From: Cenococcum geophilum
Lineage: Eukaryota
Direction: 5' to 3'
DNA length: 64,000 bases
NCBI GenBank assembly: GCA_050273025.1
Contig: CP158635.1
Span: forward strand, 9,486,001 to 9,550,000
Shown piece by piece: positions 8,903 to 64,000 of this stretch (within the stretch, counting starts at the first letter, position 1; each line of letters begins with the position of its first letter). Below the pieces are notes generated by a model. That model saw nothing but the letters and a program-made list of their open reading frames with translations. It was not told where the DNA came from and made no database searches. The position numbers and the translations under genes are program-made.

Positions 8903-8961
8903 TGTTACGGACCTTATATTAGCAGTAGTACGACTACTAAAAAGAGATATAAGCGGGTTAG

Positions 8962-10888: not shown

Positions 10889-12093
10889 AAAAAGGCCCCC
10901 CCAAATCGCTCCTTAAACTACTTTAAAAGGTCTAAACAGCCTACCTTTAGAGTATAATAGGCGGATATAAGCGAACGGCTACAGTACTGCTTTAAAAGGA
11001 AGCTAATATTCCCCCCCTATAACTATATATTAAAGCCGCTGCAATATAAAGGGCGTAAAAGGAACGTAACTCTAATATTATAAAGTATATTAAGATACGC
11101 TTAAATAAACTATAGAGGGACCCTAGGGCGCCTTATAAAAGAATAAACCAATAACCTTAAAGTAGGGAAGATATATTAGAGAAATAGGTAAAGAAAGTAG
11201 AAAAAAAATAGTACTGCTTTAGGGCCTAGGCCTATATAGAGAAGAAAGGGAGACGTATAAGAGGCTAGTAAAGATAATAGTAAGAAAGAGAAAGGAGCTA
11301 GAGTATAAAAGAATGCTAGGAAACTATCTACCGTAATATAATACTGGCTAGACTAACGCTAAAGAGGTATATAGGAGTTAAAGGTATAGAGGCTAACTAA
11401 GGTAAGAGGAACCTAAGCTGTAGTATAGTTAACGCTATAGGGGGTAAATACTTTAGGGCTCTAAGAAGGCCTAATAAAGGTAGAAAATATAATAGTAATA
11501 CTCTTAAGATTAGGAATAATAGGACTAAAAGACTAGCTCTACTAGGTAGGTATCTTAGTAGGTAGCCTAAGATATAAATATAGCTGGCTAAGATAAACAC
11601 TAAAATATATAATACTATTATGCCCCTTATATACTAACTAAGAAGTAATACTCTTAGTAGCTAGTATAGAGAACTATAAAACACTACTCTTAATATAAAA
11701 AGGCCTTAAGGCGGTTACCTAGTAGCTTATTAGCTAAAATATATTAAACTAGTTCTAGGTTATAAAGGAAATAGCAATAAAGGGCGAGGGGGCGAGTAAT
11801 GGGCGCCCCCTAATAACTCTATAGTAGTAGAGTAAAGTTTACGATACTAGCGCGTCCGTAGGCTTGTTACGGCAGTAGTGGTCCCCAAGGAGGTCAAAAA
11901 GTAAGGTAGTAGGAGCACCACAGGTGACTCGCAGGCGCCTCGCAGGCGCCTTGCAGGCGAGTCCCAAAAGGCAGGGAGATGGATCACGGGGTTTTCTCAA
12001 ATAGAGTTTTCTCCCCACATGTACATAAGGAGTAGTCCGCGTGGGCCCAATAGGGATCCGAATCGGACGTTAAGCAATGAATTATTATTATTA
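10889..12093 (+). mobile_element. Tad1-like LINE 3' part with (ATT)n tail, copy A part 2
   Basis: Matches ~39945-41153 and ~63508-64000. Ends GTCCGCGTGGGCCCAATAGGGATCCGAATCGGACGTTAAGCAATGA(ATT)n. Confidence 0.85.
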
Positions 12094-12244
12094 CCATCCG
12101 ATCCAGACGTTTGGGGAGCTGGAACAGGCCAAACAAGTGCAAGTGCGGAGATGAGGGAACCCCGGGTTACCTCTTTCGGATGCAAACACTTCGTGACGAC
12201 GCGTCGAACTTTCAACGGCATTTCAATTAACAACGCTTGTAAAC

Positions 12245-24803: not shown

Positions 24804-25219
24804 TACCTTTAGGGCGCTGGAGCTGCGTTAAACCGTGACCGCAGGCTACCGATTCCGAGGATTGATATTAAAGACTATGTATATTAGAATTGAGCTTACA
24901 TCTGAGACGATCTGTTACTGAGGAAGTCTTACGTTGCCACATGCCTCCTATGTCAGGTTCTGTTGACGGAACGATAGAATATTAGATGATTGAAGGAAGC
25001 CAGAAAGGCCAGAAAGAACAATTACACAAACAATTAAGAACTGCCGGACAATGATATACCTTGTGGCGAGCGCTGTATATTGGAATGGTCGGCGAAAGAC
25101 GACTTCAAGACTTTTGTTCCTGTATTCGGACTAATGTTTTTCCAGCACTTCATCAAGAAATCGCATCCCACATTCCGCAACGGGCACATTCCCAGAGGGT
25201 GGGGCTCAATTGGTACGAG

Positions 25220-27261: not shown

Positions 27262-28588
27262 CGAAAGTGGGTTTAGCTATTCTTTCAGGCCATTTACCGC
27301 CTGGGGTTAGTCACATCTAAGTACAGACAAAACTCTTTATTACGATAACGGGTATATAACGATATATTTTGTATTACGATCTGAACGCCCTGGGAAGGGG
27401 GTATATCTGGCCCGTGAGGAGGACAATCTATACCCTTTAGGCTTTAAGATCCGCTTTTATTGGGTTTTTACTGCTTATTCATGCTACACGTGACTCTTAA
27501 TACAACAATTACGATACATTCGGCGCCAAACCAGCTTTGCCTGTATTCTCAATTGGCAGACGATGACATTTTATGACGAACCTATCACAGAGTCCACCCC
27601 TTGCTACATTGCATTGCATTGCATTGCATATACGAATCAACTTAGATTTTAGTCGCAATTAGAGGTTGAGAGCAATGCTCCTTGAGATTTATGAACACCA
27701 AATGAAGGTGACATAACATGTTCCAACTATCGATAGCGGTGTCGTGCTCACGAGCATTCGTGTAATGTAGAAATGTCTCGAATAACTCGACACAGGGAAG
27801 AAATAGCTAAAGTATGGCCTTTGGGGCCGTTTTCTGGGGTTAGCGTAGTGGCTCGTGATCGAATTCCCCTGAGCGGCTCCAAGCCATCGATAGGCGCCCT
27901 GGCGTTGGCGCTTTCGGAGATAGCTTTGGACCAAATGGGTACCATTCGGCCTTCATAAGATGAACGTCCATCAGCCCTGTGTCCGGGCGGTGAGGCATTT
28001 CAGCTGGGATGCACAGGAGGCTGACCGGATGTTTCAATTGTTTACTGTCCGCCCGAGCATCGAGGAATGGAGCACGGCATTATGAGCGGTGGTAATAGGC
28101 TCTCTGTGCAACATCAAAACAGGGTTTGAAAGAAGCCTGTAGAGAGTAGGCAGTCGGTCTTGAGAAATGCAGAGGACCACGGACTAAATTAGAATAAATT
28201 AAGCTTGGTGAGCGGCGATAGTACCTAGGTATTAACGATCACCCCTGGCATACCCCCCCTTATCCCACACGCTGGCGGACGCGAAAAAGTACCTGGTACC
28301 TGCTTCAACCGACTCGCAAGCCTCTCGACAGACACGCTCTTTCAGTCCCTTCTTGCAACTGATCCGTCCGTTACTCGTCGCTCTTTACCAACAGTCACTC
28401 TTTCTGCCAACAAATCGCTCATTTCGCAAACTATCTGCATCATTACCGTACCGGGTCATACGCAATACTTGCCGCGCAGAGCCCAGCTTGATCCCTCGAA
28501 TCTCGATCGGAACAGCTCCAGCAACAAGTTTAAACCTATCTAATTGAGAGAGGAACGCATCCACGGCGTTTCTCCGCCCGAATTCATC

Positions 28589-28923
28589 ACGGCTTCAGCT
28601 CTGGCGACGTCTTTGCTCCCACGGCCCTCGGCCCTTGACTCTTTTCGCCCTCCCTCAGTCCTCCAGGTCCTTGACCTGCCTTCCTTCACCACGGCTCAAT
28701 CAATTGACGAACGGCTTTCTCTACCTTCCATCGGCCACGACATATCACGGCCTTCGTCCACTTCTACACAGTCCTCTTCGGTTCATCCACACAGCCTACA
28801 GCGTCACGGCAGCAATTCGTCTCTACAATTACCAGGATTATCGGCTTTGGCTTCGATAGCCTCGTCCAGTCCTGCCGCAAGTAATAGTCCGAATAATAGC
28901 CATCATAATAATACTCCTAATAG
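28589..28923 (+). CDS. Putative upstream non-AUG-initiated coding exon of areB
   Basis: Stop-free frame 28544-28923 with no ATG. Donor GTGAGT at 28924 and acceptor CAG at 29109-29111 (CTGAC branch) splice it in frame to ATG 29134. Candidate starts are ACG 28589 and CTG 28601. Confidence 0.6.
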
Positions 28924-29133
28924 GTGAGTGTTTTGTGTCTTGGAATTAGGCGTGATGGGAATGGACGGTTTGGGCACTTGGATTTGGAGGCTGCGTGAAT
29001 GGTCTCATCGGCCACCGTACGAGAAGCTGGATTCTGCGCAGCGTTATCGAGATCCCCCCAAATCTCTTGCCTCTTTTGCGACACTCGACCTGACACGTAT
29101 CTCTCTAGCAGACCGTTAAATTTCAATGCCGGC

Positions 29134-30225
29134 ATGACTTATGCGACATCAGCCCCCGCGACATCCGGCGGGCAGGGCAACTCTCCTGTAAGTTTTGCTT
29201 CCTGTGCTTGAGTCGTACACCCGCGATCATCAGGGTCGCGAAGAAATCTCTGTTCCCTTATCCTTATCGCGATCACCACAATCGATATGATACATTTCCA
29301 TCACAATCTTTAATCGACTGCGTCTAACAATTGTGTTTGGCATCAAACGTAGCCCGTTTGCCAGAATTGTACCACAAGCACGACTCCACTCTGGCGTCGC
29401 GATGAGTCGGGTTCCGTTCTTTGCAATGCCTGCGGGCTCTTCCTGAAGCTGCACGGCCGGCCGCGACCCATCAGCCTCAAAACAGATGTCATCAAAAGCC
29501 GCAATCGCGTCAAGACAACTGGTCAAGGACCTCGAAAGAAGGTACTACTCTACTTATTCCCATCACCGCCCATTCAATAGCTAAACCCTATTGCGCAGCC
29601 CTCATCAGACGCAAATGGTCTCCCAGCAGCCCACCCAGACGCCGATGCAACACTGTCTGCTCTAACACAGCACCGTCGAACGTCGCAGAAGATTTCCTCC
29701 GGCACGTCTGACAGGTCAAACTCCCCCATCTCACGCACCGGCACGCCAGGTCTGCAGCATCCATCCAACATCGCGCCGCAGCATATGTTCGACGGTGTCA
29801 TCGACAGCCACACCTTCCATTCTCCATCGTTGCCGTCTTTCAACCTACGGCAACCCTCACCAGGTTCAACTTCCTCGGTCAATGGCTCACACCTCGAACC
29901 ACCACTTCCTTATGATGCGCTACTAGCTCAGAACACGCAGCTGAAAACTCGCGTTAGCGAGCTTGAAGTCATCAATGATCTCTTCCGTGGACGCGTCACG
30001 GAGCTCGAACACAGCGAACAAAACGCGCGAAGAGCATCTCGGGAAACAGAGGCTCATCTGCGGGCTGACCTAGAGGAAGTCAGGCAAAGGGAGGCCGATC
30101 TAAAGAGGAGACTTGATGAGCTGGAAGCTGAGGGGCCACGACACAAAAAGATGCGATTGAGTGACATTGTGGATGAGAGCCAGGCAAGCACGCCACTAAG
30201 CTCTACGGCAGAGCATTCGGGATGA
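29134..30225 (+). CDS. areB: GATA zinc-finger/leucine-zipper transcription factor AreB/Asd4-like (AUG isoform exons 29134-29187, 29353-29541, 29599-30225)
   Basis: [50 protein letters not shown] plus the C-terminal zipper [23 protein letters not shown]. Canonical introns. Confidence 0.9.
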
Positions 30226-31536
30226 AATAGGCTCGCTTCTCCGTCTGCTCTACTTTCCTTTTTGGGTCTATTTAATGATAACATTCATGCTCGTTGCTGA
30301 ACAGGTTTTCCTACTCTTCATTCCTCCAACATCTAGTCTAACGGCTTGTCTTGCTCCTGTTCCAATACCGCTAGTCGTCGGTATGTGGAGTTGCTTACTC
30401 TTTCAATCCTCCTGTTCCACTCTATCTCATTTACTCTACACCCTCGCTACATCACGCTCTCTAGACACAGCGTCAACGCACCAAAAAATCTCTTCACCTC
30501 CCAAACAGATTCTCGTACACATACATCCTAATGTCTGGTCTCGGCCGCCGCTCGCGAGTATGTACTCTAATTAACTTTTCTTATCTGTCTGTCGTTTTGT
30601 TGGTCCGGAGCAAGGGGGAGTTGCGCTATAACCATGGTCTTACCTTCGTCCATGATGGGTGGTCGGTTCGGGAATCGAGATACCAAGTCGAACGGGCGGA
30701 TAAGTATGGTTGTGTGGGTGGACACGTCACCAAAAGTCTTTATAAGGGTAGTCGGTTGCAATGGGAAGTGGAAACACGGAACTATACTCGCCCTCGCCCG
30801 CTTGCTGTGACCTTTCCGCCTTCACCCACAACCTTGAAGACTAAGCGACCGATGCACTTGTGGCGTTCTGCAGCGCCATGTGTCCTGCTGAGGTCCGGAA
30901 CGACCTGATTGATCACGCCTTCAGTGCTTCGGCGCCCCATCCACAACATCCAACGCTGCAACCCTAAGCATATCCGCCACTCGCTCAAATGCATCCCGGG
31001 CTCTAGTCAACCGTTTCTTGCTGATCTCCGCCCCCGTCTAGCCACGAGGGTGTCCTTCGTCTTCGTCTTCCCCTTCCTCTACAGCACCGCCGGGGGTAGA
31101 GCCGAGCGTGAGGAGCTGTGGCCGCGGGTTTCCGTGCGGAGGTCAAGTGCCGCACGAGTTTGTGCGTGAAATTATCTCATAAATCAGACGCTCCATAGTA
31201 GAATTTGATAATTTGGTTACGAGGCGAGAACATGTACATACTGCTCCGTATATCTCCAAGTTTAATAATAAAGCGTCTGAGAGCTCACGGGCCTTGGTTT
31301 AATAGTAACTAAATATTTTAAACCCTATTTTTTTATCACTTTTTATAAACTATCCCTTCCCACTGGCTTCTACTACTTGGTGCCAAGCCTGTGAACATTA
31401 GTATCAACACCAAGCTCTTAGTCGAACGAGAGTCTGTAAATTAGCTAAACCCTTATCGATATGCTTGGGCGTAAACCAGCGTGGGGAGGGATAGCCTAAT
31501 TATAATAGGTATATTTAAAATTTTATACTAATAGCT

Positions 31537-32240: not shown

Positions 32241-32242
32241 TA

Positions 32243-34200
32243 CCCATCTTACCATTGGGAACAATTGATTTTCCAACTTTTAAGACCTAATTCCTGCTGC
32301 CTAGCGAGCTAGAGGTGGATTTATTTGTCGTTTTACCCCCTTTCCCCCAACAGAAAATTCTTCTTAGGGGTGGTCCTAGCTTATAAGCAAGGCACGGATA
32401 GGAACACCAAAACCACTACTACCACTACCACTAATACCAAAACTATAAAATATAGACTTTTCCTAGGTTTTTCTTCTATAGAAAGCAAAAGCCTAATAAA
32501 ATAGGGGGCGTAGGTACTTTTCTATATCTCCTTTAGTCAGATTTTCTTTAGTAAGAGGAGGATTGCCTTTAGGGCTTTTCTGCTAGTAAAAGCCTTACAA
32601 GTCCTTTTTTTAGTAGTGTTTTCTACTTCTAATAGGAAAAGAAAATAACTATACTAGTCTTTTTAGCTAGTTTTTCTACTACCTTTTAGCCTAATCTCCC
32701 TAGAAATCTTCTAGTAGGATTAGTAAGGAGAAAGGGCGTAGATGGATAGTAAAAACTAGCAAGGCTTTTTGCCTAGTTTTTTACCTCTGGGACTAGGAGA
32801 TAAGAGACCTAAGGAGGTTATTATCTACTATAAAAACTAGGAACCCCCCTAATAAGATATAAAATGCCAAGGCCTAATAGGTCTAAAAAAAAACCTCCTA
32901 TAAATAAGTAATGAAGAGTCTATATTTACCTTTTCTCCCCCTTCTCCCCCTTCTGGCCTCTTTAGGATAGGAGAAAAAAGAGGACATCCTTAGTCTTCTC
33001 CCGAAAAAGAAAACCAAAAACCTGTAAAAAAGACAACAAAACTAATAACTACTACGGCTGGTACGCCTAGTATACCTTCCTATTCCCTTTCTTTAGAACA
33101 ATATCTAAGCGAGGCTCTAGATAGCCTAATTAAGGCCTATAAAGGGCTAGAAGACGAAGAAATAGTAAAAATAAGTTGGAAAGGTAGCGGAATATACACA
33201 AAGTATCCTATTAGGAGAAAATCCCTTTACATAAGAAAAAGAAAAAGAAAAGACAAACAATGTCCTAAAAGGACTAGTAGAAGAAGTAAGAGCTCTTTGT
33301 AAGGAGGTAGCTCCTATTAAAGAAACTTACGCAGAGAGGCTAAAGAAGGACCTCCCTTCTTCGTCCTCCCTACCCTCCTTATTACTACCTTTTACCCCTT
33401 CTTCTTCTAGTAGGAGTTCTACTTCTACTAGAAGTAAGAAAAAGCAACTATAAGAAAGGAAGCTAGTCTTAATTACAAACGAAAAGGACTAACCTTTAGA
33501 TACCTTCTCTATACGAAACAAAGTTAATCAACTATTTGCTTCAAAACTGCAAGTAAAAAAGCTAGTACTAGCGTCTATAGCTAGAACTAAAGGAAAACAA
33601 AATATTCTTCTTATGACTACAGAAGAGTATAATATAGATTTCCTAGTCAAATATAAGGATATCTAGTATAACTACTTTACCTTCTAAAGAGAACAAAACT
33701 TAGAACCCTAGGTTTAAATTATAGCCTATAGGGTTCCTACCCTACCTTTTCTAAAAGAGGGAGGCTTTAAGCTTCTAAAAGAAGAAACTGAGACCTTTAA
33801 TCCTATAGGGATATAAGGACTACCTAGATAGATCTTAACTAGTGTAAAAAGACACGATTTACAAACCAGATTTGGCTCTATAGTTTTTACTATAGAAAAC
33901 GAGGAAAAAGATAAGAAATCCTTAAGTAAAAAGAGATTTTAATCGCAGGTATAGCTACTAAGGTAGTAAAATACCTCGAAGTCTCTTTTACTACGCAGTA
34001 CACTAGCTGCCAAAAATTTGGCCATATAGGAGACAGATGCTCTACTAGGGCTTATAGATTTTATACGGCTATATATCTATCTAAAGACCACGCCTGTCCT
34101 ACTTGTATAATAATAGGCAAGCCTTGCAAGTATACTACCCCTCTTTGCATTAATTGTAAAGAAAACCACTTTACTAATAGTAAGGACTGCGAGACCCTTT
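32243..34200 (+). mobile_element. ORF1(gag)-type non-LTR retroelement, copy 1 (3'-truncated, 5' end interrupted by pogo)
   Basis: Reverse-complement homolog of ~49855-51503. RIP-broken ORF MPRPNRSKK... with CCHC knuckles at ~34000-34190. Confidence 0.8.
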
Positions 34201-36125
34201 TACTACCCCTTAGACCTTCTAAGATACCCTAGAAGTATAGTATAAAAGGTAGATATACTATAAAGGAATATAGGCTAGGTAAAGGCAGGGCACGTAAAAC
34301 TAGCTAAAAGGTTATACCTAGGTTTTTTATAACCGACTACGGTACCCTGCTAAACTACTACTGTTTTACCTATGTATTGCCTACGTATTGCTTACGTATT
34401 GCTTACATATCACTTATATATCACGTTGTATTAGTTACGTCTTAGTCTCCCCTTTTATTTATTTCTATACCTTCCTTATATATATATAGGCGCTTTAGAG
34501 CTACATATACAATTAAGTCGTTTATTTAATTCTTTACACTAATATTTAATATTAATCTTTTAGAAAGGAGCTCTTGCTACACCCGGCCCAAAAAGACCAA
34601 AACCAACCAAAAGAACCCTGAAAAACACCTAGAGAATCCCCCTGAGATGCATGCATCGCAGGGGAGGCACACGTCGAACGACGGTGGCTCGCACTCGCGC
34701 GCGACCGCTAGAACTATGCCCAGCAATGGCCCTCCATAATAAAGATAGGCGAATACCATACCATAAAGTGGAAATACCTCTATTAAGAAGGCATTTAATA
34801 AAATATAAAGCCTATTAGACGCGTTTAGTATCTAAAATTATAGGGGAGTAACCGTTAGCTATAATAAACTAATATAGCTAGTAGAATAACTCCGCTAGTC
34901 TAGTAAACCTTAGGCGCCCCTTTAGTAAACCCTTAATTAAATCCTCTAATAGCTAAGTAAAATTAAAAATAAGTATAATCCCCCCTTACCGGCGAACCGC
35001 ACCTAGGCCGCTATAGCTACGCTTTTATAGTATAGGGAACCTACCCCCCTTAAGTTAATAACCGGGTATATAATTATAATATAACTAAATATAGAATAAG
35101 TAGAGGGGCTTAGGGGATAATTAGAAATAGAAGTTCTTATAGAGATATATAAAGAGGTTTATAACGCTATTATAGTCCAATACCTTAAGAGTAGAGATAT
35201 TAGAGTTACCCTAAAGGACTAATAGGTAAAGGAATAAGCCGTAAGGGTAGGGGATAGGCTAGGAGAACGTATTAGCATAAAAGTACTCTATAAGAATTAC
35301 CTAGTTAAAGTCCTAGCGGTTCCTATAAGCCTTAAGGTAGAAAAGGGACGCTAGGTAGATAATATAGCAATTATATAAGAGATAGTAAGATAAATGGAAC
35401 GCCTTATACTAGGACTCGAAATCACCTAAATTTAATAGCTTTAACAGGAAAATATAAACTAAGCATATAATAAGAATAATAAGAGAATATAAGGGTTGCT
35501 AAAGACTCGCTAGGGAGACACCGGACGAACGTATGGCTCCCTTATTATTAGTATATATACACTAGGAATACAAAAACTCCTTATCTAAAAAGGAATAATT
35601 ATAAATAGCCTTATATATAATACAAGGCTCTACAACTATAGACTACGCCTAAAATAATACTATCGCTATATATAATGGGGACATACCTAATCTATATGCG
35701 CAGCATAGGTATACTACGGCCACTGTATAGGCCCCTACGATATAAGATATTACTTAAATTAAGACTAAATAAAATACGCGAACTGCTACTAAAGCATATA
35801 TAAGGCGTAGGAGAAAAAAGACTATATTAAATACAGGAGACAAAAGGCAAGGGCTTAATAGCTACGGGAATAACTACACGCTAGGTTATATAAATGGAAA
35901 TAATAGGCGATAAGCTAGGGGGACATAGGCGCCTTCTTAGCGTTTCCTACCTTTAATACTAGAGGGCTAGGCTAGCCATCCTAAGCCTTAACGGGCTAGA
36001 AGTAACGCCGTATAATATTACTAAACTAATTAGGGATATAAGGGTTATAGGGGATATAAGGGAGAGGACGCCCTATAGGAAGACCCCTATAAACAGTAAT
36101 AGCAGGCTTAAAACTAGGATAATTA

Positions 36126-37152
36126 GTAGTAGTAGTAGTTCTTTAATTAACGTCTGATACAGATCCTATCTTAGCCCACGCAGACTACTCCGTCACAGGG
36201 GGGAAAACTTGTAATTTACATGAAGAAAACCCTGCAGTTGGGGGAGGAAAAACCCTATAAGCAGCCTTAGTAGGATAAAAAACCCCAATTTGCCATATTT
36301 GCAAATAGCAGCGGCCCTACGGGCCTACTACACGTCCTCCTCCTTAGATGTTTTAAACTCCTTAGGAACCACTGCTTCCTTCTCTAGCTTATTAAAGCTA
36401 GGGTTTACTACGTCCCAGCTAGGCCTTACTAATCAATTGCTATATCTTATTGTCTCTTTATATCCCATATCTTGCCTATCCCCTATATACTATCTCTTAT
36501 ATAGACCACTGCCATATACGCCTTGCCTCCCCCCCCCTAAAGCCATCGAAGGCGTAAGGGGGATTTATCTATTCTAACTACCGTAATACTAATAAGCGAG
36601 CGGGATATTATGTATATTTAGGTATCTTTTATACCTAGGCCCTAGCTAGGCCCTCTCTAAGGGTTACTACTCCGTTAAAAGGAGATAGGGAAAACCGTAG
36701 GTCGCAATCCAAGCTGCTAGGTAGTATTTGGTAGTTGAAAACGGTAAGTAACTGCATGCTCCGCGGGCGACTGCCCTAGGGGTTAGGAGGGGCCGTATAT
36801 TTGCTCATTCGTTCGTTCGCTCGTACGCTTATTTATCTGTTAATATAAGGTCGTCAATGCTTTCCATTGGGGGCTAGGGGATGCTTTTAAAAGCTGTTTA
36901 TTCACGTTAGATTATATAGGTGCTTAGTAGGAGAACTAGTGGCTGTATTATAAAGGGGTACCGTTAGTAGTGGTTTTTGAGATCTCACTATCCTATATAA
37001 AAACTTTTCACTATGCCCCACGACGCACATAACCACTAGGTCCTACTTGCACGCGCTATATAACGTCTCTGCGTTAGCTCTGGGTCTAAACTTTAAAGAC
37101 CTAGGTTCGTAGCCGTCACCACGTATAGGTGCAGAATCCGTTTTCGACGGCC
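36126..37152 (-). mobile_element. Non-autonomous SINE/SIDE-like retroelement: HDV-like ribozyme + LINE-like 5' UTR + LINE-like 3' end + (ACT)n tail
   Basis: 14-bp TSD AACTAGGATAATTA (36112-36125, 37153-37166). The empty site is visible in LINE copy C at ~60715-60728. The 5' ~420 nt are homologous to 58705-59110, and the 3' end resembles 12028-12093. Confidence 0.9.
37067..37152 (-). ncRNA. HDV-like self-cleaving ribozyme (RIP-touched copy)
   Basis: Minus strand: GGCCGUC-gaaaacgga-UUCUGC-ACC-UAUACGU-GGU-GACGGCU-AC-P4(GGUCU/AGACC)-CUAAC-GCAGAG. G1 abuts the TSD. Confidence 0.75.
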
Positions 37153-40100
37153 AACTAGGATAATTAAGAATTAGACTTAATACGGTAAATATAATATTCG
37201 TAGCTGACCTATAAAGGGTATATAGCCGACTAGTAAAAATAGGGGAAGAACTAATAATAATAACAGATTTAGATATAGAAGCGCTAATAGGAATATAAGA
37301 TATAGGAATAGAAAGCTCTATATAAAATAAGTAGTAACTAGGGTATAGACATAAGAAATAGAAGCTCCAAATATTTTAGAGAAAGTAGAAATAGAAGAAG
37401 TGAGGAACAAAGGAGAGTCGAAGGACCCTTACTAGGGGTCCGCTACCTATCCATTATATAGTATAACTGCGGCAACACAAACTACTACCTCGCAAGGCCC
37501 CTACTAGACAGTCTAGACCTAGAGAAACACTATATCCTTACTATATAAGAACCGTATTATAATACCTTTATATAATTAATATACTGCCCCTAAGGATTCT
37601 AGCTCCTATATAAACTAAAAGTAGCTATACGCGTGTGCTTTATAATTAGTAAGGCTATCAGCCTGTCCTTATAGTTATAGTAGGTAGTTAACCTAGATAT
37701 TATAGTTATAATAATTTAAACATATAGGGGACCGGTATAAATTATTAATGTATATAACCCTAGGGTTAAAGGGGTCCTATAAATAAAGAATATTATATTA
37801 GTAATAAGCTTACTAGAAACCGAAGGTATAGAGTTTATCCTACTAGGAGATATAAACCTCTACTACCCGCAGTAGGGGAGTATCTATATTGCTGCAGATT
37901 AATAGTCAGAGTGCCTACTAAGAGCTATAGATATTTAGGGCCTTAAGCTAGCCACCCCCCTAGGAGTAATTATATAGCAATAAGGCACCGCCAGAAGTAT
38001 AATTGACCTTATATTTATAGATGAAGGCCTATACTAGAGACTTAAAAGGTATAACCCTAAAGAAGAATAGGCACTTACCCTAGACTATATCCCTATCTAG
38101 ATATAGCTAGACCTAGATACTAAAGTGTAACTAAATAGAAAAAGATATATAATAAGGAAGCTTAAGACAGATAGTTTTCTTAATATAGTTAAATAACAAT
38201 TTTAAGACCTAGAAGAAATCCACCTAATACTAAACAAGCGAGGCTTATTAGCTACCCCCAAGGAAATTAACTAAAGACTAAAAAGGATCTAGGCAGCGAT
38301 TAAAAATAGGCTAAAAGAGCACTACCCGATCTTAAAACTAGGCCCTTATACGCAATATGTATGGTCTATATAATGCGCAGTTCTGGTTACTAGCTAATAA
38401 TAAGTAAGAAGAAAATATATAAGTAGCTATAACCCTAAAGACAAGAGATAATATAAAGACATAAGAAACTAGCTAAAGAATACCCTAAAAAAAGAAGTAA
38501 GGAATAACTAGAGACGGTTTATAAACGAGTATACTTCTAACCTAAGCCTCCCCTATAATAAGGGCCTTTGGGCTATAGCAAAATAGGTAAAGAAAAAGGC
38601 AGGGCGCCTAGTAGAAGACCTATACCTACTACTCCTATAAAGAGCAGAAGAATTATAGGCTATAAACAATAATAATAAAAAGGCAAAAATCTTTATAGAA
38701 AGGTTCTTCCCCTAACCGGCTTTAGTAGACCTTAGTAATATCACGGATAAAACACTAGTAACTTACCTATAGGTTAACAGCGATATAATAATAGAGGAAA
38801 TAGCTAGAACTATTAGCCGCCTTTTAAATAATATAGCACTAGGACCAGATAGGATTTTAAATAAGGCCCTAAAAACCTATAGGCCACTTATAGCACCTTA
38901 GCTTACAGATATAGCCAAAGTATACTTTGCTATAGGCTACTACCCGCAACTTAAAAGATCTATAACGACGGTTATTCTATAAAAAGAAAGTAAAGCAGAT
39001 TACTTAATCCCAGGAAGCTACCGCCCTATTGCCTTAAAAAACACCCTTAGTAAGATTTTAGAAAGGGTAATAGCGGAACGCATAGCAGATATAGTAAAGA
39101 AATACGCCCTACTACTATAAAGCTAAATAGGGGCAAGAAAAAACCGCTTAACACTATTAGCACTTACGCTACTCGCTACTACTATTAAATTTATATAGGC
39201 GATACGAAAGGACTTTATAGTATTAATGCTTAGCTTAGATATTAGTAGTACCTATAATAATATACCCCATAAGCGTCTCCTGTATATCCTTAGGGCAAAG
39301 GGCTTCTTAGAATAGATTATATAATTTATCTAAGGGTTTATAGGCTAGAAAGAAACATTACTAGTCTTTAGCGAATACTAGAGCCCCCCTATTATAGTTA
39401 CAATAGAAATACTATAAGGATTACCCCTCTCGCCTATACTCTTCCTTTTCTTTATAAGTAACCTACTTAACTCCTTTAAGGAAGGGGCAACCTAGGGGAT
39501 AGGCTTTATTAATAATATAAACCTAATTATATACGGGCCAATAGCTATAAAGAATTGCAGAATACTAAAGAAAGCCTATAATACTTATATAGAATAGGCA
39601 AAACGTTATAGAGTCTAATTCTTACCAGAGAAATACTAGCTAATCCATTTTATAAGAAAACGTAACTAATCTATAGATCTTTAGCATATAATTCGCATTT
39701 AAGGCTTTAGGGGTTAACCAGTTTAGGGCCTAAGGGTATTAGAAGTATAGGTAGATAGTAAGCTCCGGTGGAGCGCATATGCGGCATAAGCGGCCTGTAA
39801 AGGCTAAGCATAGTTCATTACTTTATCTAGGATTGTTAATTCTATATAGGGTCCATGCTTTTAGAGGTTACGCCTACTATATACAGTAGTCGTCCGGCCA
39901 ACTATAATATATAGATCCAGTATTTGGGCCATTAGAGAAACTAAAAAGGGCCCCCCTAAATTACTCCTTAAACTACTTTAAAAGGTCTAAACAGCCTACC
40001 TCTAGAGTATTATAGGCGGGTATAAGCGAACGGCCATAGTACTGCTTAAGAAGGAATCCAATATTCCCCCCCTATAGTTATATATTAAAGCCGCTGTAAT

Positions 40101-41919
40101 ATAAAGGACGTAAAATAAACACAACTTTAATGTTATAAAGTATATTAAGACACGCCTAAGTAAACTATAAAGGGACCCTAGGGTGCCCCGTAGGAGAATA
40201 AACCAATAACCCTAAAGTAGGGAAGAGATATTAGAGAAACAGGTAAAGAAAGTAGAAGAAAAATAGTGCCGCTTTAGGGCCTAGGCCTATATAGAGGAGG
40301 AAGGGAGACGCGTAAGAGGTTAGTAAAGATAATAGTAAGACAGAGAAAGGAGCTAAAGTAGAATATATAAGAACGCTAGAAAACCATCTACCGCAATACA
40401 ATACTAGTTAGATTAATGCTAGAGAGGTAAATAGGAGTTAAAGGTATAGAGGCTGACTTAGGCAAGATAAACCTAAGCTATAGCATAATTAACGCTATAG
40501 GGGGTAAATACCTAAGGGCTCTAAAAAGGCCTAATAAAGGTAGAAAATATAATAGTAATACTCTTAAGAACAGGAATAATAGGACTAAAAGATTGGCTTT
40601 ACTGGGTGGGTGTCCTAGTAGGTAGCCTAAGATACGAATATAGCTGGCTAAAATAGACACCAAAACACGTAATACTGCTATGCCCCCTACGTACTAATTA
40701 AGAAATAATACTTTTAGCAGCTAGCATAGAGAACTATAATACACTGCTCTTAATATAAAAAGGCCTTAAGGCGGTTACCTAGTGGCTTATTAGTTAAAAT
40801 ATGCTAAATTAGTTCTGGGTTATAAGGGAAATAGTAATAGAAGGTAAGGGGGCGAGTAGTAGGTGCCCCCTAGTAACTCTACAGTAGTAGAGTAATAGTT
40901 TGTAATACTAGCGCATCCGTAGGCTTATTACGGCAGCAGTAGTTCCTAAAGAGGTTAAATAATAAGGTAGTAGAGCACTATAGGCAACTTATAGGCGCTA
41001 AGTAGGCGAGTCCCAAAAGGCGGGGAGATGGATTATAGGGTTTTCTCATTTTTCTTAAATAGAGTTTTCTCCCTATATATAAATAAGGAGTAGTCCGCGT
41101 GGGCCTAATAGGGATCCAAATTGGACGTTAAGCAATGAATTATTATTATTATTAATTCTTCACACTGTAAAAGCTTACATTTTTCCTATATAGAGATTTT
41201 TCCTATAAATAGAAGGTAGAAGCCTATATAGACCTAAAAAAGGGACTAAATTGGGCAATAAATAGAATAAATAATAATATTTATTTTTAGATTTATATAG
41301 TAAAAATAATTAAGTTAATAGTTTTTTCTATAAACTCTAATTATATTTTTAATTTCTTTAATAAAAGACTTACCTAATACTTTATTTTTATTAAAAAAAC
41401 TCTAATTATTTTCTATATATAATAAATCTTTTTAAAAAATAACATTTTCTTTTTATTATTAGATATTTGTTAGTATGCTTTAATATAGTGTAATAGACGT
41501 AATATACGTGCAGTGCGATATATAATTAGATTCTTAAGGTTCTATTCTATAATATAGTGTTAATATATATACGCGTCTCGCGTAGGTTACGTGCTGTGTA
41601 TGTGACACGTAAAACGAATATATACCGACACTAGCAGCTCTTTAAATGCTAGGAAACTAATAGAACCTCCTTTATCGGGAAAATATTCGCAGGCTGGGTT
41701 TTAAGTTGACTTTGTTAAGCGCGTTTCGCGTAATTGACATACAGTTGACCAACTTAACATATTTAAAAGTTAAATAACATATAATTGACCTGTAATTGAC
41801 CTATAATTAACTAACTTGATATATTTAAAAGTTAAATAATACGCAGTTAACTAACTTATATATTTCTTAATATACAATTAAGGTAATATAATATATTATT
41901 TTTAAGTTATATGCTTAAG

Positions 41920-42330
41920 AGGCTCTATATAAAGCTCTATACAAAGCTCTGCAATAGAGGCTCTGTACGAGGCTCTACACGAGGCTCTGCACGAAGCTCT
42001 GTATAAAGCTCTGCGATAGAGGCTCTGTATAAAGCTCTGTGTATAGATGCTCTGCACGAGGCTCTGCATGAAGCTCTGCGTATAGAGGCTCTGCACGAGG
42101 CTCTGCACGAAGCTCTGCGTACAGAGGCTCTGCACGAGGCTCTGCACGAAGCTCTGCGTACAGAGGCTCTGCACGAGGCTCTGCACGAAGCTCTGCGTAT
42201 AGAGGCTCTGTACGAGGCTCTGCACGAAGCTCTACACGAAGCTCTATACGAAGCTCTACGTATAGAGGCTCTGTACGAGGCTCTGCGCGAAGCTCTGTAT
42301 ACGGAGGCTCTATACGAAGCTCTATATCGG
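41920..42330. repeat. 39-bp minisatellite (12+12+15 subunits) in the Copia 3' region
   Basis: Unit GAGGCTCTGCAC-GAGGCTCTGCAC-GAAGCTCTGCGTATA. Confidence 0.9.
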
Positions 42331-42437
42331 GTCCCCGCACACGCCTCTGTTAAGTTACCCCCTTTGCAGCTACCTTATTTTTTACCCTTTCTTACATCCT
42401 CCCTACCTTAGGAGGTACTGGAACGGCAGCTAGCAGA

Positions 42438-43250
42438 GGACCGTCGCTAGAACTAGATAACCGTCGCTAGAACTAGACAACCGTTGCTAAAACTAAATAA
42501 CCGTCACCAAAACTAGACGACCGTTGCTAGGACTAGATAACTGTTGCTAGAACTAGACGACGACCGTTTAAACAACTAGCTAGTAAATACTATAAATAAT
42601 TTAATTAATTAATTGATCGAATTAAACTAGAGCTTTAATATCGGCCTATTACCGAATCGAATTAAGACTTCCTAGGGAGGCACCCCAGACGACTACTGTT
42701 TAAATATATAGCTAGCGAACGGCTATAAAGAACGATTTGAATTAATAAGAGCCTTTAATTAGGCCGACTCCTCCCCTAAATTAAACTAGATATTAACGTA
42801 GGCAGGTAGGTAGGTAGGTAGGTAGGTAGGTAGGTAGGAGAGGACCGTTGCCAGAACTAGACGACCGTCGCTAGAACTAGACGACCGTCGCTAGAACTAG
42901 ATGACCGTCGCTAGAACTACGACCGTCGCCAGAACTAGACGACCGTCGCCAGAACCAGACGACCGTCGCTAGAACTAGACGACCGTCGCCAGAACTACGA
43001 CCGTCGCCAGAACTAGACGAACGTCGCCAGAACCAGATAACCGTCGCCAGAACTAGATGACCGTCGCCAGAACCAGATGACCGTCGCCAGAACCAGACGA
43101 CCGTTGCCAGAACTAGACGACCGTTGCCAGAACCAGATGACCGTCGCCAGAACCAGATGACCGTCGCCAGAGCTAGATGACCGTCGCCAGAACCAGACGA
43201 CCGTCGCTAGAACTAGTAGACGACTGTTACCAGAACCAGACGACGACCGT
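42438..43250. repeat. 20-bp minisatellite in two blocks (42438-42570, 42843-43250)
   Basis: Unit GACCGTCGCCAGAACTAGAC, head-to-tail with no spacers. Confidence 0.9.
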
Positions 43251-43469
43251 TCAAATAACTAGCCAGCGAACACCACGAACGATTTAATCGATCAATTAAA
43301 TTAATCTAGAGCCTATTACTAAATTGAATCGAATCAAGGCCTCCTAGGGAGGCACCCTAGATAACCACTATTTAAATATACAGCCAGCAAACGGCTATGG
43401 AGAACGATTCGAATTAATTAGAGCCTTTAATTGGGCTGACCTCTCCCCCGAATTAAATTAGACACTATA

Positions 43470-43875
43470 GGTAGATATAAATAGGTAGGCAATATAGATA
43501 GGTAGATAATGCAGATAGGTAGACGATATAGATAGGTAGGCGATATAGATAGGTAGGTGATGCAGATAGGTAGGTAATGCAGATAGGTAGGTAATGTAGA
43601 TAGGTAGACGATATAGACCGGTAGATAATGTAGATAGGTAGGCGATGCAGATAGGTAGACGATGCAGATAGGTAGACAATACAGATAGGTAGGTAATGTA
43701 AATAGGTAGGTAATGCAGATAGGTAGGTAATGTAGATAGGTAGACAATATAGATAGGTAGATAATGTAAATAGGTAGGCGATATAGATAGGTAGGTAATG
43801 CAGATAGGTAGGTAATGCAGATAGGTAGGTGATATAGATAGGTAGACAATGTAGATAGGTAGCGGATATAGACAT
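43470..43875. repeat. 17-bp minisatellite
   Basis: Unit AGATAGGTAGRYRATRY, roughly two dozen copies. Confidence 0.9.
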
Positions 43876-44166
43876 AATAGATTATATAAAGAAGTGTATA
43901 TAATTTATCTTAATAGCTTTATAAACGGCTTTAAAGTAGCCTTTATTATCTAAAATTATAAGTTATATAGGTTGCGTAGGTTGCGTAGGTTGCGTAGGTT
44001 ATATAGGCTATACGCAGGCTGCGCGCAGGCTATATGTTAAATGAACTCGATATAGGCTGGTTTATTAAGTTAGTTAATACCCTTAATGGCCCGCTAACGA
44101 CGCCAACTTCTAGCAGCTGAGGTCATTTACAAGGGACAATATTTTGCCGATGTTTATAATAGTAAG

Positions 44167-44451
44167 TGTTACGGGACCACCCTATAACACGCATTCTGCC
44201 GTATCCTGCTATATTCTACCTACTACCGCAAAATCGTCCTATGTTCGCAATATTGGTAATATCCATAATATCCGTAATTTCTACCGAATTCTGCTAGGTC
44301 TGCTGAATTCTGCCAAATCTACCAAATCCTATTAAATTCTGTTAGGTCTGCTAAATTCTACTAAATTCTGCTAAGTCTGCCAAATCTACTAAATCCTGTT
44401 AAATTCTGTTAAGTCTGCTGAATTCTACTAAATTTTACTAAGACTGTAACG
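44167..44451. mobile_element. Probable solo LTR nested in the Copia 3' region
   Basis: TGTTAC...GTAACG ends. Flanks GTAAG (44162-44166) and ATAAG (44452-44456) differ by one G>A transition. Internal short tandem repeats. Confidence 0.55.
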
Positions 44452-58704: not shown

Positions 58705-58789
58705 GGCCGTCGAAATCGGACTCTGCACCTGTACGTGGTGACGGCTACGAACCTGGTCTTTGAAGTTCAGATCCAGAGCCAACGCAGAG
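58705..58789 (+). ncRNA. HDV-like self-cleaving ribozyme at the LINE 5' end
   Basis: P1 GGCCGUC(58705-11)/GACGGCU(58740-46) with a G1-U wobble. P2 CUCUGC(58721-26)/GCAGAG(58784-89). P3 ACC/GGU with 7-nt L3 UGUACGU. P1.1 GU/AC. P4 hairpin ~58753-58776. J4/2 C-C-A-A-C with the candidate catalytic C at 58779. Confidence 0.82.
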
Positions 58790-61700
58790 ACGTCGCATAG
58801 CGTGCGGACAGGACCTGTGGTGGTTATAGGCGTTAAGGGCGGTGGTGAAAAATTTTCAGATGGTGAGATCTTGAAAACCACTACTGTTGGCTCTCTACAG
58901 TACGACGACTACTACATTCTCCTATCCAGGGCACCTGTACGATCCAACATGGATGCACAGTATTCGATATCACCCCCCGTCCCCCAGTAGAAAGCATTAA
59001 TAACCTTATATTAATAAATAAGCAAACGTAAACAAACGAACGAACGAGTAAATATACGGCCCCTCCTAACCCCTAAGGCGATCGCCCGCGGAGCATGCGG
59101 TCACTCGCCGTACTGCTATAATACTACTAAAAGCGGCAGCTAGATAACCCCGTAAAGATTAACGGAACTGGAGCTCTTGCTGCACCCGGCCCAAAAAGAC
59201 CAAAACCAACCAAAAGAACCCTGAAAAACACCCAGAGAATCCCCCTAAGATGCATGCATCGCAGGGGAGGCACACGTCAAACGACGGTGGCTCGCACTCG
59301 CGCGCGACCGCTAGAACTACGCCCAGCAATGGCCCTCCACAATAAAGACGGGCAAATACCACACCACAAAGCGGAAATACCTCTATTAAGAAGGCATCTA
59401 ACAAAATACAAAGCCTATTAGACGCGTCTAGTATCTAGAATTATAGGGGAGTAACTATTAGCTATAACGAACTAATGCAGCTAGCAGAATAGCTCCGCCA
59501 GTCTAGTAAACCTTAGGCGCCCCTCTAGTAAACCCTTAATTAAATCCTTTAACGGCTAAGCAAAATTAAAAATAAGTATAATCCCCCCTTACCGGCGAAC
59601 CGCACCTAGGCCGCTATAGCTACGCTTTTACAGCATAGGGAACCTACTCCCCTTAAGTTAACAACTGGGTATATAATTATAATATAACTAAACACAGAAT
59701 AAGTAGAGGGGCTTAGGGGATAATTAGAAACAGAAGTCCTTATAGAGATACGCAAAGAGGTTTATAACGCTGTTATAGTCTAACACCTTAAAAGCGGAGA
59801 TATTAGAGTTACCTTAAAGGACTAATAGGCAAAGAAACAAGCCGTAAGGGTAGGGGATAGGCTAGGAGAACGTATTGGCATAAAAATACTCTATAAGGAT
59901 TACCTAGTTAAAGTCCTAGCAGTTCCTATAAGCCTTAGGGTAGAAAAGGGACGCTAGGTAGATAACACAGCAATTATATAGGAGATAGTAAGATAAACGG
60001 AACGCCTTATACTAGGACTTAAAATCACCTAAATCTAATAGCTTTAATAGAAAAATATAAACCAAGTATATAATAAGAATAATAAGAGGATATAAGGGTC
60101 GCTAGAGACTCGCTAGGGAGACGCCGGACAAACGTATAGCTCCCTTATTATTAGTATATATACACTAGGAATGCAAAAACTCCTTATCCAAAAAGGAATA
60201 ATTATAAATGGCCTTATATATAATACAAGGCTCTATAACTATAGACTACGCCTAAAATGATACTATTGCTATATACAATAGGGACACACCTAATCTATAT
60301 GCGCAGCACAGGTGTGCTACAGCCACTATATAGGCCCCCACAATACGAGATATTGCTTAAATTAAGACTAAATAAAATGCGTAAACTGCCACCAAAGTAT
60401 ATATAAGGCGTAGAAGAGAGAAGACTGCATTAAATACAGGAGATGGAAGGCAAGGGCTTAATAGCTGCGGGAATAACTGTACGCTAGGTTATACGAATAG
60501 AAACAACAGGTAATAAGCTAGGGGGACGCAGGTGCTTTCCTAGCGTTTCCTACCTTTAACACTAGAGGGCTAGGCCAGCCATCCCAAGCCTTAACGGGCC
60601 AGAAGTAACGCCGCGCGATATTACTAGACCGATTAGGGACATAAGGGTTACAGGGGATATAAGGGAGAGAACGCCCCATAGGAAGACCTCTATAGATAGT
60701 AACAGCAGGCTTAAAACCAGGATAATTAAGAATTAGACTTAATGCGGCAAATATAACATTCGCAGCTAACCTATAAAGGGTATATAGCCGACTAGTAAGA
60801 ACAGGGGAAGAACCGGTGATAATAACAGATTTAGATATAGAAGCGCTAACAGGAACATAAGACACGGGAATAGAAAGCTCTATATAAAATAAGTAGTAAC
60901 TAGGGTATAGATATAAAAGATAGAAGCTCTAAATATCCTAGAGAAAGTGGAAATAGAAGAAGCGAGGAATAAAGGAGAGTTAAAGGACCCTCGCCGGGGG
61001 TCCGCTACCTATCTATTATATAGTATAATTACGGTAATATAAACCACCGCCTTACAAGGCCCCTACTAGATAGTCTAGACCTAGAGAAATACTATATCCT
61101 TACTATATAAGAGCCGTATTATAATACCTTTATATAATTAATATACTGCCCCTAAGGATTCCAGCTCCTATATAAACCAAAAGCAGCCATATATATATAC
61201 TTTATAATTAGCAAGGCTATTAGCCTATCCTTATAGTTATAGCAGGTAATTAACCTAGACATTATAGTTATAATAATCCAAACATATAGGGGACCGGTAT
61301 AAATTATTAATATGTATAACCCTAGGGTTAAAGGGGTCCTATAAACAGAGAATATTATATCGGTAATAAGCTTACTAGAAACCAAAGGTACAGAGTCTAT
61401 CCTATTAGGAGATATAAACCTCTACCACCCGTAATAGGGGGGTATCCATATTACTGCAGACTAACAGTTAAAGTGCCTACTAAGAGCTATAGATATCTGG
61501 GGCCTTAAGCTAGCTACCCCCCTAGAAGTAATTATATGGCAATGAGGCACCGCTAAAAGTATAATTAACCTTATATTTATGGACGAAGGCCTATACCAGA
61601 GACTCGAAAGGTATAACCCCAAAGAAAAATAGGCACTTACCCTAGACCATATCCCTATCCAGATATAGCTAGACCTAGATACTAAAGCGCAACTAAATAG

Positions 61701-64000
61701 AAAAAGATACGCAATAAGGAAGCTTAAGATAGATAGTTTCCTTAATACAATTAAACAATAACTCTAAGACCTAGAAGAAATCCACCCAATACTAAACGAG
61801 TAAGGCCCATTAACTACCTCTAAGGAAATTAACCGAAGACTAGAAAGGATCTAGGCAGCAATTAAAAATAGGCTAAAAGAGCACTACCCAATCTTAAAAC
61901 CGGGCCCTTATGCGCGACACATATAGTCCACATAATACGCAGTTCTGGTTACCAGCTAATAATAAATAAGAAGGAAATATATAAGCAGCCACAACCCTAA
62001 AGACGAGAGACAATATAAAGACATAAGAAACCAGCTAAAGAATACCCTAAAAAAAGAAGTAAGGAATAACTGGAGACGGTTTATAAACGAGCATACTTTT
62101 AACTTAAGCCTCCCCTATAATAAGGGCCTTTGGGATATAGCAAAATAGGTAAAAAAAAAGGCAGGGCGCCCAGTAGAAGACTTATACCTACCACCCCTAC
62201 AAAGAGTAGGAGAATTATAGGTCATAAATAACAACGATAAGAAGGCAAAGATCCTTATAGAAAGGTTCTTCCCCTAACCGGCTCTAGCAGACCTTAGTAA
62301 TATCACGGGCGAAATACTGGTAACTCGCCTGCGGGTTAACAGCGACATAATAATAGAGGAAATGGCTAGAACCATTAGCCGCCTTTTAAATAATATAGCA
62401 CTAGGACTAGATAGGATTCTAAATAAGGCCCTAAAAACCTATGGGCCACTTATAGCACCTTAGCTTACAGATATAGCTAAAGCATGCTTTACTATAGGCT
62501 ACTACCCGCGACTCGGAAGATCTATAACAACGGTTATCCTATAAAAAGAAGGTAAAGCAGATTACTTAATCCCAGGAAGCTACCGCCCTATTGCCTTAGA
62601 AAACACCCTTAGCAAGATCTTAGAAAGGGTAATAGCGGAATATATAGCAGATACGGTAAAAAAACACGCCCTACTACTATAAAGCCAAATAGGGGCAAGA
62701 AAGAACCGCTTAACACTATTAGCACTTACGCTACTCGCTGCCACCATTAAATCTGCATAGGCGATGCGAAAGGACTTTATAGTATTAATGCTTAGCCTAG
62801 ACATTAGTAGTGCCTATAACAATATACCCCACAAGCGTCTCCTATATATCCTTAGGGTAAAGGGCTTCCTAGAATAGATTATACAATTTATCTAAGGGTT
62901 TATAGGCCAGAAAGAAACATTACTAGTCTTTAGCGGATACCAGAGCCCCCCCATTGTAGTTGCAACAGGAATACTACAAAGATTACCCCTCTCGCCTATA
63001 CTCTTCCTTTTCTTTATAAGTAACCTACTTAACTCCTTTAAGAAAGGGGCAACCTAGGGGATAGGCTTCGTTAACAATATAAACCTAATTATATACGGGC
63101 CAACAGCCGCAAAGAACTATAGAACACTAGAGAAAGCCTATAACACTTATATAGAGTGGGCAAAACGTTATAAAGTCTAATTCTTACCAGAGAAATACCA
63201 GCTAATCTATTTCATAAGAAAACATAACTAATCTACAGATCTCTAGCATATAATTCGCATCTAAGGCTTTAGGGGTTAACTAGTTTAGGGCCTAAGGGTA
63301 TTAGGAGTATGGGTAGACAGCAAGCTCCAGTAGAGCGCATATGCGGCATAAGCGGCCTGTAAAGGCCAAGTACAGTTTATCACTTTATCCAGGATTATTA
63401 ATTCTATATAGGGTCCATGCTTTTAGAGGTCACGCCTACTATATACAGCAGTCGTCCGGCCAACCATAACATATAGATCCAGTATCTAGGCCATTAGAGA
63501 AACTAAGAAGGGCCCCCCAAAATTACTCCTTAAACCACTTTAAAAGGTCCAAACAGCCTGCCTCTAGAGTATCACAGGCGGGTATAAGCGAACGGCCACA
63601 GCACTGCTTAAGAAGGAATCCAATATTCCCCCCCTACAGTTACATATTAAAGCCGCTGCAATATAAAGAACACAAAATAAATATAACTCTAATGTTATAA
63701 AGTACATTAAGACACGCCTAAGTAAACTATAGAGGGACCCTAGGGTGCCCCGTAGGAAAACAAACCAATAACCCTAAAGTAGGGAAGAGATATTAGAGAA
63801 ACAGGTAAAAAAAGCAGAAGAAGAATAGTGCCGCTTTAGGGCCCAGGCCTATATAGAGGAGGAAGGGAAACGTATAAGAGGTTAGCAAAGATAATAGTAA
63901 GATAGAGAAAGGAGCTAAAGTAAAATATGTAAGAACGCCAGGAAACCATCTACCGCAATACAATACTAGTTAGACTAACGCTAGAGAGGCGAATGGGAGT
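58705..64000 (+). mobile_element. Tad1-like LINE, copy C, 5'-complete (ribozyme, 5' UTR, ORF1 from ~59250, APE, RT), runs off the window
   Basis: Colinear with copy B but with fewer RIP changes. Motifs LLGDINL (~61405), GSYRPIALEN (~62575), TGI(P)Q..PLSPILFLFF (~62965) and GFV(DD) (~63065). Confidence 0.92.

Follow-up and report, generated by a model that had tools for sequence, protein, structure and literature searches.

We analysed a stretch of 64,000 nucleotides (nt) from the Cenococcum geophilum genome (GenBank assembly GCA_050273025.1, contig CP158635.1, positions 9,486,001 to 9,550,000 of the forward strand; the whole stretch is called the window below), in which an insert of 1027 nt on the minus strand splits a copy of a long interspersed nuclear element (LINE). 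It is strongly supported that the insert belongs to an abundant, non-coding retroposon family of ~1.0 kb in a filamentous fungus affected by repeat-induced point mutation (RIP). The element opens with a predicted hepatitis delta virus (HDV)-like ribozyme and ends in a stretch that resembles the LINE's 3' untranslated region (UTR). Our preferred reading, to which we give a probability of about 0.68, is that of a LINE-dependent retroposon, a chimera whose head is a ribozyme and whose tail is borrowed from a LINE. The features of the locus are the following, G1 being the first nucleotide of the element and the predicted cleavage site.

36126..37152, minus strand: full-length copy 1 (1027 nt) of the non-coding ~1-kb retroposon, with RIP-type transitions
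37153..37166, minus strand: 5' copy of the target-site duplication, TAATTATCCTAGTT, adjoining G1 directly
37063..37152, minus strand: HDV-like ribozyme fold, element positions 1-90, with predicted helices P1, P1.1, P2, P3 and P4
36741..37062, minus strand: element positions 91-412, common to copy 2 (58795-59111), not LINE sequence
36380..36740, minus strand: middle segment, element positions 413-773, without detectable LINE similarity, a constant part of the family
36140..36379, minus strand: diverged homologue of the LINE 3' UTR, element positions 774-1013, including the terminal stem-loop GTCTG...CAGAC
36126..36139, minus strand: tail of copy 1, (ACT)4AC as read from the sequence; tails in the family are mostly (TAC/ACT)n
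36112..36125, minus strand: 3' copy of the target-site duplication, TAATTATCCTAGTT, as read from the sequence
34565..41155, plus strand: LINE copy B, of full length and with RIP mutations, divided by copy 1, with an (ATT)n tail
59167..64000, plus strand: LINE copy C, with the true 5' end ACT-GGAGCTCTTGC, running off the window; endonuclease and reverse transcriptase in one frame
60715..60728, plus strand: unoccupied target site within LINE copy C, where the 14-mer is present once, with one transition different
12029..12093, plus strand: 3' terminus of LINE copy A with its (ATT)n tail, a 5'-truncated copy used in the 3'-end comparison
58705..59154, plus strand: first ~450 nt of element copy 2, of another subfamily, with a ribozyme fold at 58705-58789, cut off by LINE C

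The target site is preserved unoccupied in LINE C. The stretch 59170-60728 of C aligns to 34567-36125 of B at 90.8% identity and 60715-64000 to 37153-40438 at 90.2%; the two blocks overlap by 14 nt, which are exactly the duplicated bases, and the single site in C is visible in the three-way alignment. These alignments bear out the original prediction, which was made from the letters of the window and described a 1027-nt minus-strand insert with a 14-base-pair (bp) duplication and an empty site in C. Its further descriptions of a duplication that abuts G1 and of an (ACT)n tail in place of the (ATT)n of the LINE were also correct, as copy 1 ends in (ACT)4AC and LINEs A and B in (ATT)n. Copy 1 has a GC content of 0.439 and a TpA/ApT ratio of 1.72.

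The window holds only one complete copy of the element, together with the second, interrupted one. Insert positions 1-412 match 58705-59111 with 75.5% identity over 420 columns, and both stretches open with GGCCGTCGAAA. Judged from the alignments, copy 1 is inserted into LINE B and LINE C into copy 2, the remainder of which should lie past the window end.

A dispersed family of full-length insertions

An exact scan of metagenome contigs with a 23-nt pattern from the ribozyme core detected at least 121 loci; the family counts given here and below (51, 48, 37, 118 and 119) refer to the matches listed, which are selected by this pattern. Head, middle and tail are collinear within 1100 nt in 48 of the 51 listed loci whose sequence reaches 1100 nt or more downstream of G1. 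The other three are either interrupted copies or end after ~185-230 nt, and LINE coding sequence is the continuation in none of the 51. The full-length copies listed (n=37) measure 937-1057 nt. An exact duplication of 11-16 bp (mostly 14-15 bp) touches G1 with its last base in 31 of these 37 copies, several of the other six have visibly mutated duplications, and mispaired-flank controls never reach 11 bp (0 of 1332). The duplications begin with T in 26 of 32 cases, followed by A in 24 of 32, and overlap the tail repeat. Only one of 6903 pairs among the 118 upstream flanks listed is at least 70% alike. As the flanks are nearly all unrelated, the insertions are independent, and at least 117 such sites, dispersed and located at TA in AT-rich DNA, were sampled. 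These data strongly support G1 as the retrotransposed 5' end. They also agree with the suggestion made from the window that the insert represents a family of its own rather than a one-off deletion, and supply, for metagenome contigs, a count of copies with the same ends and their own duplications, as had been proposed for the genome (31 of the 37 listed).

Reads and contigs of public runs were placed at 80% likeness on a 1681-nt stretch, which collected 10875 contigs of DNA run X1 and 6892 of X5. A variant letter is carried by 28 contigs at 36668 in the middle, by 51 at 36304 in the LINE-like 3' part and by 38 at 36902 in the 5' part, and 13 X1 contigs extend past 37152 into dissimilar sequence (agreement 0.49). 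The head of ~90 nt is the best conserved part of the element, with ~90% identity to the window copy versus 75-78% across insert positions 1-412.

No conserved open reading frame (ORF) was detected in the element. The longest ATG-started ORF spans 31-144 amino acids (aa) per copy in the 37 listed full-length copies, and in the 16 least-mutated copies the ORFs of at least 50 aa lie at inconsistent places and strands; a conserved element ORF was rejected on these lengths and positions. A tRNA, 5S, 7SL or other RNA polymerase III (Pol III)-type head found no Rfam match at gathering level in the window, and the least-mutated copy (L014) has no Rfam match to tRNA, 5S or 7SL at an expectation value (E) of up to 5. 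The element thus has the non-coding character, the flanking duplications and the LINE-shared 3' end of a short interspersed nuclear element (SINE), and lacks its Pol III-type head.

The predicted ribozyme head and the element's RNA

In the numbering of copy L037, the head folds into P1 (1-7/36-42), P3 (23-25/33-35), P1.1 (27-28/43-44), P2 (17-22/81-86) and P4 (48-75); positions of copy 1 behind its extra A in P4 are one higher. P1 has 7 bp including G1.U42, P3 has 3 bp, L3 has 7 nt and P2 has 6 bp, while P4 is variable, and P1.1 joins positions 2-3 of L3 to the two bases following P1. The motif CCAAC, which would contain the catalytic C, precedes the 3' strand of P2 and is at least 90% conserved (CTAAC in the window copy). 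Copy 1 carries A27, which breaks P1.1, U17, which makes a G.U wobble in P2, and the extra A in P4; because of A27 and further transitions, this copy is probably dead.

In the fold alignment (119 sequences, 104 distinct rows, 27 pairs), the nested double pseudoknot in canonical helix order is paired in 96.6% of 2737 cells, compared with 28.7-43.2% in slid controls. Cells changed on both sides number 40 versus 22.4 +/- 6.3 in shuffled alignments, and 0 of 500 shuffles reach 40. The exchange is nearly all in P4, where two pairs alternate between GC and AU (13 and 25 rows), and a subfamily with an 8-nt deletion keeps a shorter P4 stem. The pair at the cleavage site is G.U in 92 of the 104 distinct rows, A-U in 6, unpaired in 1 and a gap in 5. 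Two Rfam HDV-type models align end to end with both window copies in searches of 301 nt, with the first position on G1. Taken together, the head is likely an HDV-like ribozyme that is active in self-cleavage.

Several results weigh against this assignment. With the two Rfam HDV-type models, copy 1 scores 19.0 bits versus a gathering score of 44 and 12.9 versus 37, and copy 2 scores 13.8 and 13.2. Across the whole window, all Rfam families stay below their gathering scores, and the 1151 nt searched in L014 gave no HDV match at E up to 5. A stricter HDV descriptor returned 0 sites in the window and missed both heads; a loosened one returned the two heads and a site at 8856, with a mean of 0.33 sites per shuffled window and three sites reached in 1 of 40 shuffled windows. 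Moreover, the structure was derived from the same sequences on which it was scored. The 3' strand of P1, P3 and L3 are without covariation evidence because they were fixed by the search pattern, P1, P2 and P3 hardly vary, and the pairs that exchange do so by G>A and C>T, changes that RIP makes as well. The Rfam HDV-type models are narrow, and most HDV-like ribozymes were found by structure searches, according to the available text of Li & Breaker 2017 (PMC5640933). For the ribozyme head of the original prediction, the canonical fold and the start of two models at G1 speak in favour, and a score at any Rfam gathering threshold is missing. The additional site of the loosened descriptor (8856-9011, plus strand) lies inside LINE copy A, has half of P1.1 only and is most likely due to chance.

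The element is transcribed. The raw RNA run X21 covers 18 of 19 element bins at a depth of 25-1866 per bin and the tail/junction bin at 6.2, compared with 0-3 on the LINE flanks; metatranscriptome contigs (X15) give the same contrast between element and flanks. First mates lie on the plus strand, with depth on the opposite strand 3-67 times lower across 18 bins, which corresponds to RNA in element sense under the usual library types. Differences between the reads and copy 1 are mainly A>G and T>C, so less mutated copies are expressed. Read ends number 233 and 304 at 37142 and 37143, where the depth is ~1049, and almost nothing extends past 37167.

As evidence for cleavage at G1, these RNA data have points against them. 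The ends pile up 9-10 nt inside G1 and not at G1, and nearly all reads come from relatives of copy 1 (5 of 9254 are at least 99% alike to it, and 8994 lie only partly on it). RNA-seq, in addition, cannot separate a cleaved end from a transcription start. Loss of the extreme 5' ends is usual in such libraries, and the shortfall of 9-10 nt could reflect this loss or a real end inside the element.

The first ~90 nt might instead, or besides being a ribozyme, act as an internal promoter or initiator at or near G1, comparable to Pr77 of L1Tc/NARTc, with the pseudoknot inactive or otherwise used. We consider this unlikely, even though the best-conserved part of the element is here, RNA coverage ends sharply near G1 with no read-through pile-up listed, no Rfam threshold is met, and in L1Tc 77 nt serve as both promoter and ribozyme, as described in the accessible parts of PMC3383444 and PMC3185411. 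All five HDV helices nevertheless fit; the cleavage site has a G.U, and in J4/2 a C stands before AA. P4 varies in length and sequence yet stays paired, for which a DNA promoter gives no reason, and the first position of two HDV-type covariance models falls on G1.

The LINE-like 3' end and the start of the LINE

Collinearity with LINEs A and B, over their last ~222 nt, extends through insert positions 774-1027. For insert 770-900 the z values span 3.2-7.1, and for 900-1027 they span 8.2-19.3, according to scoring scheme and LINE copy (100 shuffles), and an 18-nt motif is found three times in the window, once per 3' end (insert, LINE A and LINE B). The last ~250 nt of the element hold conserved blocks in common with the LINE 3' UTR, and a terminal stem-loop of 11 predicted pairs is common to both. 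It includes one compensatory pair, U-A in 8 of 8 element rows and C-G in 4 of 4 LINE rows, and the same split was seen in the listed loci (39 of 39 element ends, 3 of 3 LINE ends). Most element tails are (TAC/ACT)n, and some subfamilies end exactly as the LINE, with AAGCAATGAATTATT and (ATT)n. The LINE-like 3' terminus noticed at the outset is thus confirmed by collinearity, shuffle z and the common stem-loop, and it points to a probable dependence on the LINE.

Other observations argue against such a partnership, which would be read from a single kind of evidence, the likeness of the 3' ends. LINE tails in the listed loci are ATT/AAT and most element tails TAC/ACT. A LINE with the element-type stem was found in 0 of 3 LINE ends of the listed loci, a sample too small to exclude one. 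The autonomous LINE with an (ACT)n-type tail that was to be looked for did not appear either, as a (TAC)n tail is present in 0 of the 3.

The middle segment (insert 413-773) showed no convincing similarity to whole LINE copies with transition-tolerant scoring. The placements disagree, and the best scores are 72.5, 71.5 and 82.5, for shuffle maxima of 75.5, 79.5 and 72.0 (20 shuffles each). When the segment is compared with the final 753 nt of LINE A or B, z is at most 2.1 in 23 of 24 tests (100 shuffles), and one 30-nt match at z 3.5 to LINE B is not repeated with A. A LINE origin of this segment was rejected at the sensitivity reached; the shuffle-controlled comparisons agree, for insert 413-773, with the earlier view that the middle is unlike the LINE.

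The 5' part was a different matter. It had been proposed that ~420 nt of the insert are homologous to the LINE 5' UTR and that the insert is SIDE-like, that is, a short internally deleted element (SIDE) joining the LINE's own 5' and 3' ends. The LINE starts, however, with the sequence GGAGCTCTTGC at ~59167 in C and at 34565 in B, and the metagenome LINE copies L028, L051 and L047 begin to match C at 59166-59170 and B at 34549-34568. The five LINE copies have the common start (ACT/AAA)GGAGCTCTTGC and unrelated upstream DNA; GGAGCTCTTGC is preceded by ACT in three of the copies and by A-runs in two. Copies of the element family match 58705-59154 and then run into their own middle, not into the LINE. 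In the window, 59154 is followed by 12 unmatched bases, which may be extra nucleotides added at 5' joining, and then by the start of LINE C. Since the family copies continue into their own middle and the LINE starts at ~59167, the stretch 58705-59154 is an interrupted element copy. The candidate LINE 5' UTR at 58705-59111 was ruled out accordingly, as it belongs to this second element copy.

No Rfam match was found in the LINE 5' region at E up to 5, and the partner LINE is, as far as its sequence tells, without a ribozyme. Pfam searches with stops read as X detected a single frame with both an AP-type endonuclease and a reverse transcriptase, and no RNase H or other domain behind the reverse transcriptase in B, A and L046. 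A clear target-site duplication around LINE B was not seen by eye. Because the LINE starts elsewhere and without the head, the element is not an internal-deletion derivative of it: the 3' end comes from an autonomous element, as in a SIDE, and the 5' end does not come from the donor of the 3' end. Only the last ~250 nt are LINE-like, and by these comparisons the partner LINE is not the source of the head or of the ~770 nt that follow. An element copy also lies inside LINE coding sequence in L047, and in L051 another is separated by ~850 nt from a LINE 5' end downstream of it; with the cases in the window, element and LINE are therefore often nested or adjacent.

The element might still be the SIDE of another, ribozyme-bearing autonomous LINE whose 5' UTR gave positions 1-773. 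R2 SIDEs and NARTc arose in this way according to the available text of PMC3414825 and PMC3185411, and the at least 121 loci were sampled from metagenome contigs and not from a whole genome. We regard this as improbable, as none of the 51 listed long ribozyme-bearing loci enters LINE coding sequence and the LINE family that shares the 3' end starts elsewhere, without the head. A one-off origin, as a single rearranged LINE fragment or by deletion after insertion of a full-length LINE, would agree with the single complete copy in the window and has practically no chance of being right, given at least 121 loci with unrelated flanks, the 37 full-length copies with duplications of their own, the variant contigs that number dozens at each site in two DNA runs, and the second interrupted copy in the window.

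Elsewhere in the window, minisatellites occupy 41900-44450, with units of 12, 15 and 27 nt at 41980-42335, 20 nt at 42394-43261 and 17 nt at 43407-43923, and a ~29-nt periodicity at 44277-44439 (successive 67-nt copies 9-29 nt apart). Part of them (41921-42325) is similar to a stretch of ~1.65 kb in L050, by which an element copy is interrupted immediately after the ribozyme. Another repeat family is present in inverted orientation at 32241-34199 and 49856-51505, ~16 kb apart, with several collinear blocks that are 80-96% complementary. The block 12000-31000 has an ordinary composition (GC ~0.45-0.58) and lies between RIP-degraded, AT-rich repeat stretches (GC 0.27-0.40), with the 3' end of LINE A directly at its left border.

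Proposed life cycle and relation to known systems

The sequence features described above are observed, and from them we infer each step of the following life cycle. Copies of the LINE-dependent chimera would be transcribed, probably by read-through from neighbouring promoters, or from another promoter. The first ~90 nt of the RNA would fold into the HDV-like structure and cleave just 5' of G1, which would remove upstream host RNA and leave a uniform 5' end. The last ~250 nt would imitate the 3' UTR of the endonuclease/reverse-transcriptase LINE, with its stem-loop and trinucleotide-repeat tail, and because of this imitation we propose that the LINE protein binds the element RNA in trans. The protein would then nick AT-rich DNA at TA, prime on the tail and copy the RNA to its very end, and the outcome would be full-length insertions with duplications of 14-15 bp that abut G1. 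A wider formulation, for which we see even odds, makes the element a counterpart of SINEs with an HDV-like ribozyme in place of the Pol III head: promoterless, fed by read-through, freeing itself at G1, a parasite of a LINE that has no ribozyme, and one of the repeats that its host carries in the highest numbers and transcribes most.

In animals and trypanosomes, it is established that a ribozyme defines the 5' end of R2, RTE/Baggins-type and L1Tc-type elements. By analogy, the closest known system is that of the R2/R1 hybrid SIDEs of Drosophila, in which, according to the available text of Eickbush & Eickbush 2012 (PMC3414825), the R2 ribozyme stands before an R1 3' end and the elements, with 14-bp duplications, are moved by R1. 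The family described here would likewise combine an HDV-like head (predicted) with the 3' end of a LINE that does not supply the head, is non-coding, has a 14-bp duplication and would be mobilised by the machinery of the donor of its 3' end. The head of the hybrid SIDEs is traceable to R2, and they are site-specific in ribosomal DNA and rare (PMC3414825, in the same available text). The fungal element differs in its ~680 further non-LINE nt behind the head, in having no known source of the head, in its dispersed AT-rich TA sites, of which at least 117 are independent, and in its abundant RNA. R2 SIDEs and NARTc/L1Tc resemble it as non-autonomous elements of the non-long-terminal-repeat type with an HDV-like ribozyme (predicted here) at +1 (PMC3414825, PMC3185411). 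In the accessible parts of these sources they share the ribozyme with the autonomous partner, the first 77 nt of NARTc being those of L1Tc (PMC3185411), whereas the presumed partner LINE here has none.

Among fungal elements, AfuSINE2-1a of Aspergillus fumigatus, which is paired with the Tad-clade LINE I-1_AF (PMC5063351), is also non-coding, with a 3' end that resembles a LINE 3' UTR; its tail is (ACT)n and its duplications measure 14 bp. As far as the text available for that paper goes, AfuSINE2-1a has a tRNA-related Pol III head, a length of ~335 nt on the published alignment and few copies, the eight AfuSINE2 span 140 to 493 bp, and the word 'ribozyme' has 0 occurrences. Our element differs from it by the ribozyme fold at its head, its length of ~1.0 kb and its high copy number. 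The fungal HDV variants of Li & Breaker 2017 (PMC5640933) are likewise of the HDV class and present in many copies in fungal genomes. In the accessible text, that variant pairs C with G at the cleavage site, carries an E-loop in its P4 and has one nucleotide more between P2 and P3, and retrotransposons have 0 mentions; in the head described here the cleavage-site pair is the canonical G.U, P4 is plain and the additional nucleotide is absent.

LINEs and SINEs that bear ribozymes are assigned to metazoans in a 2019 review (PMC6765202, in the part available). A repeat survey of one RIP-affected ascomycete rich in transposable elements reports abundant Tad1 LINEs, and the words 'ribozyme' and 'non-autonomous' have 0 occurrences in its accessible text (PMC12910237). 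Our literature search found no fungal ribozyme-headed retroelement of the LINE/SINE type and no fungal pair of a LINE and a ribozyme-bearing retroposon, which agrees with the earlier statement that such a pair was not known to be described.

The family offers a clean natural data set, with dozens of full-length copies that have duplications at the predicted cleavage nucleotide, and abundant RNA. It may explain some of the canonical HDV-like motifs reported in fungi, and such elements are probably present within the 'unclassified' repeat fraction of large fungal genomes. On our reading of the family as a LINE-dependent chimera, a retroposon can use a ribozyme head that is absent from its helper LINE, and the making of the 5' end would therefore be separable from recognition by the helper.

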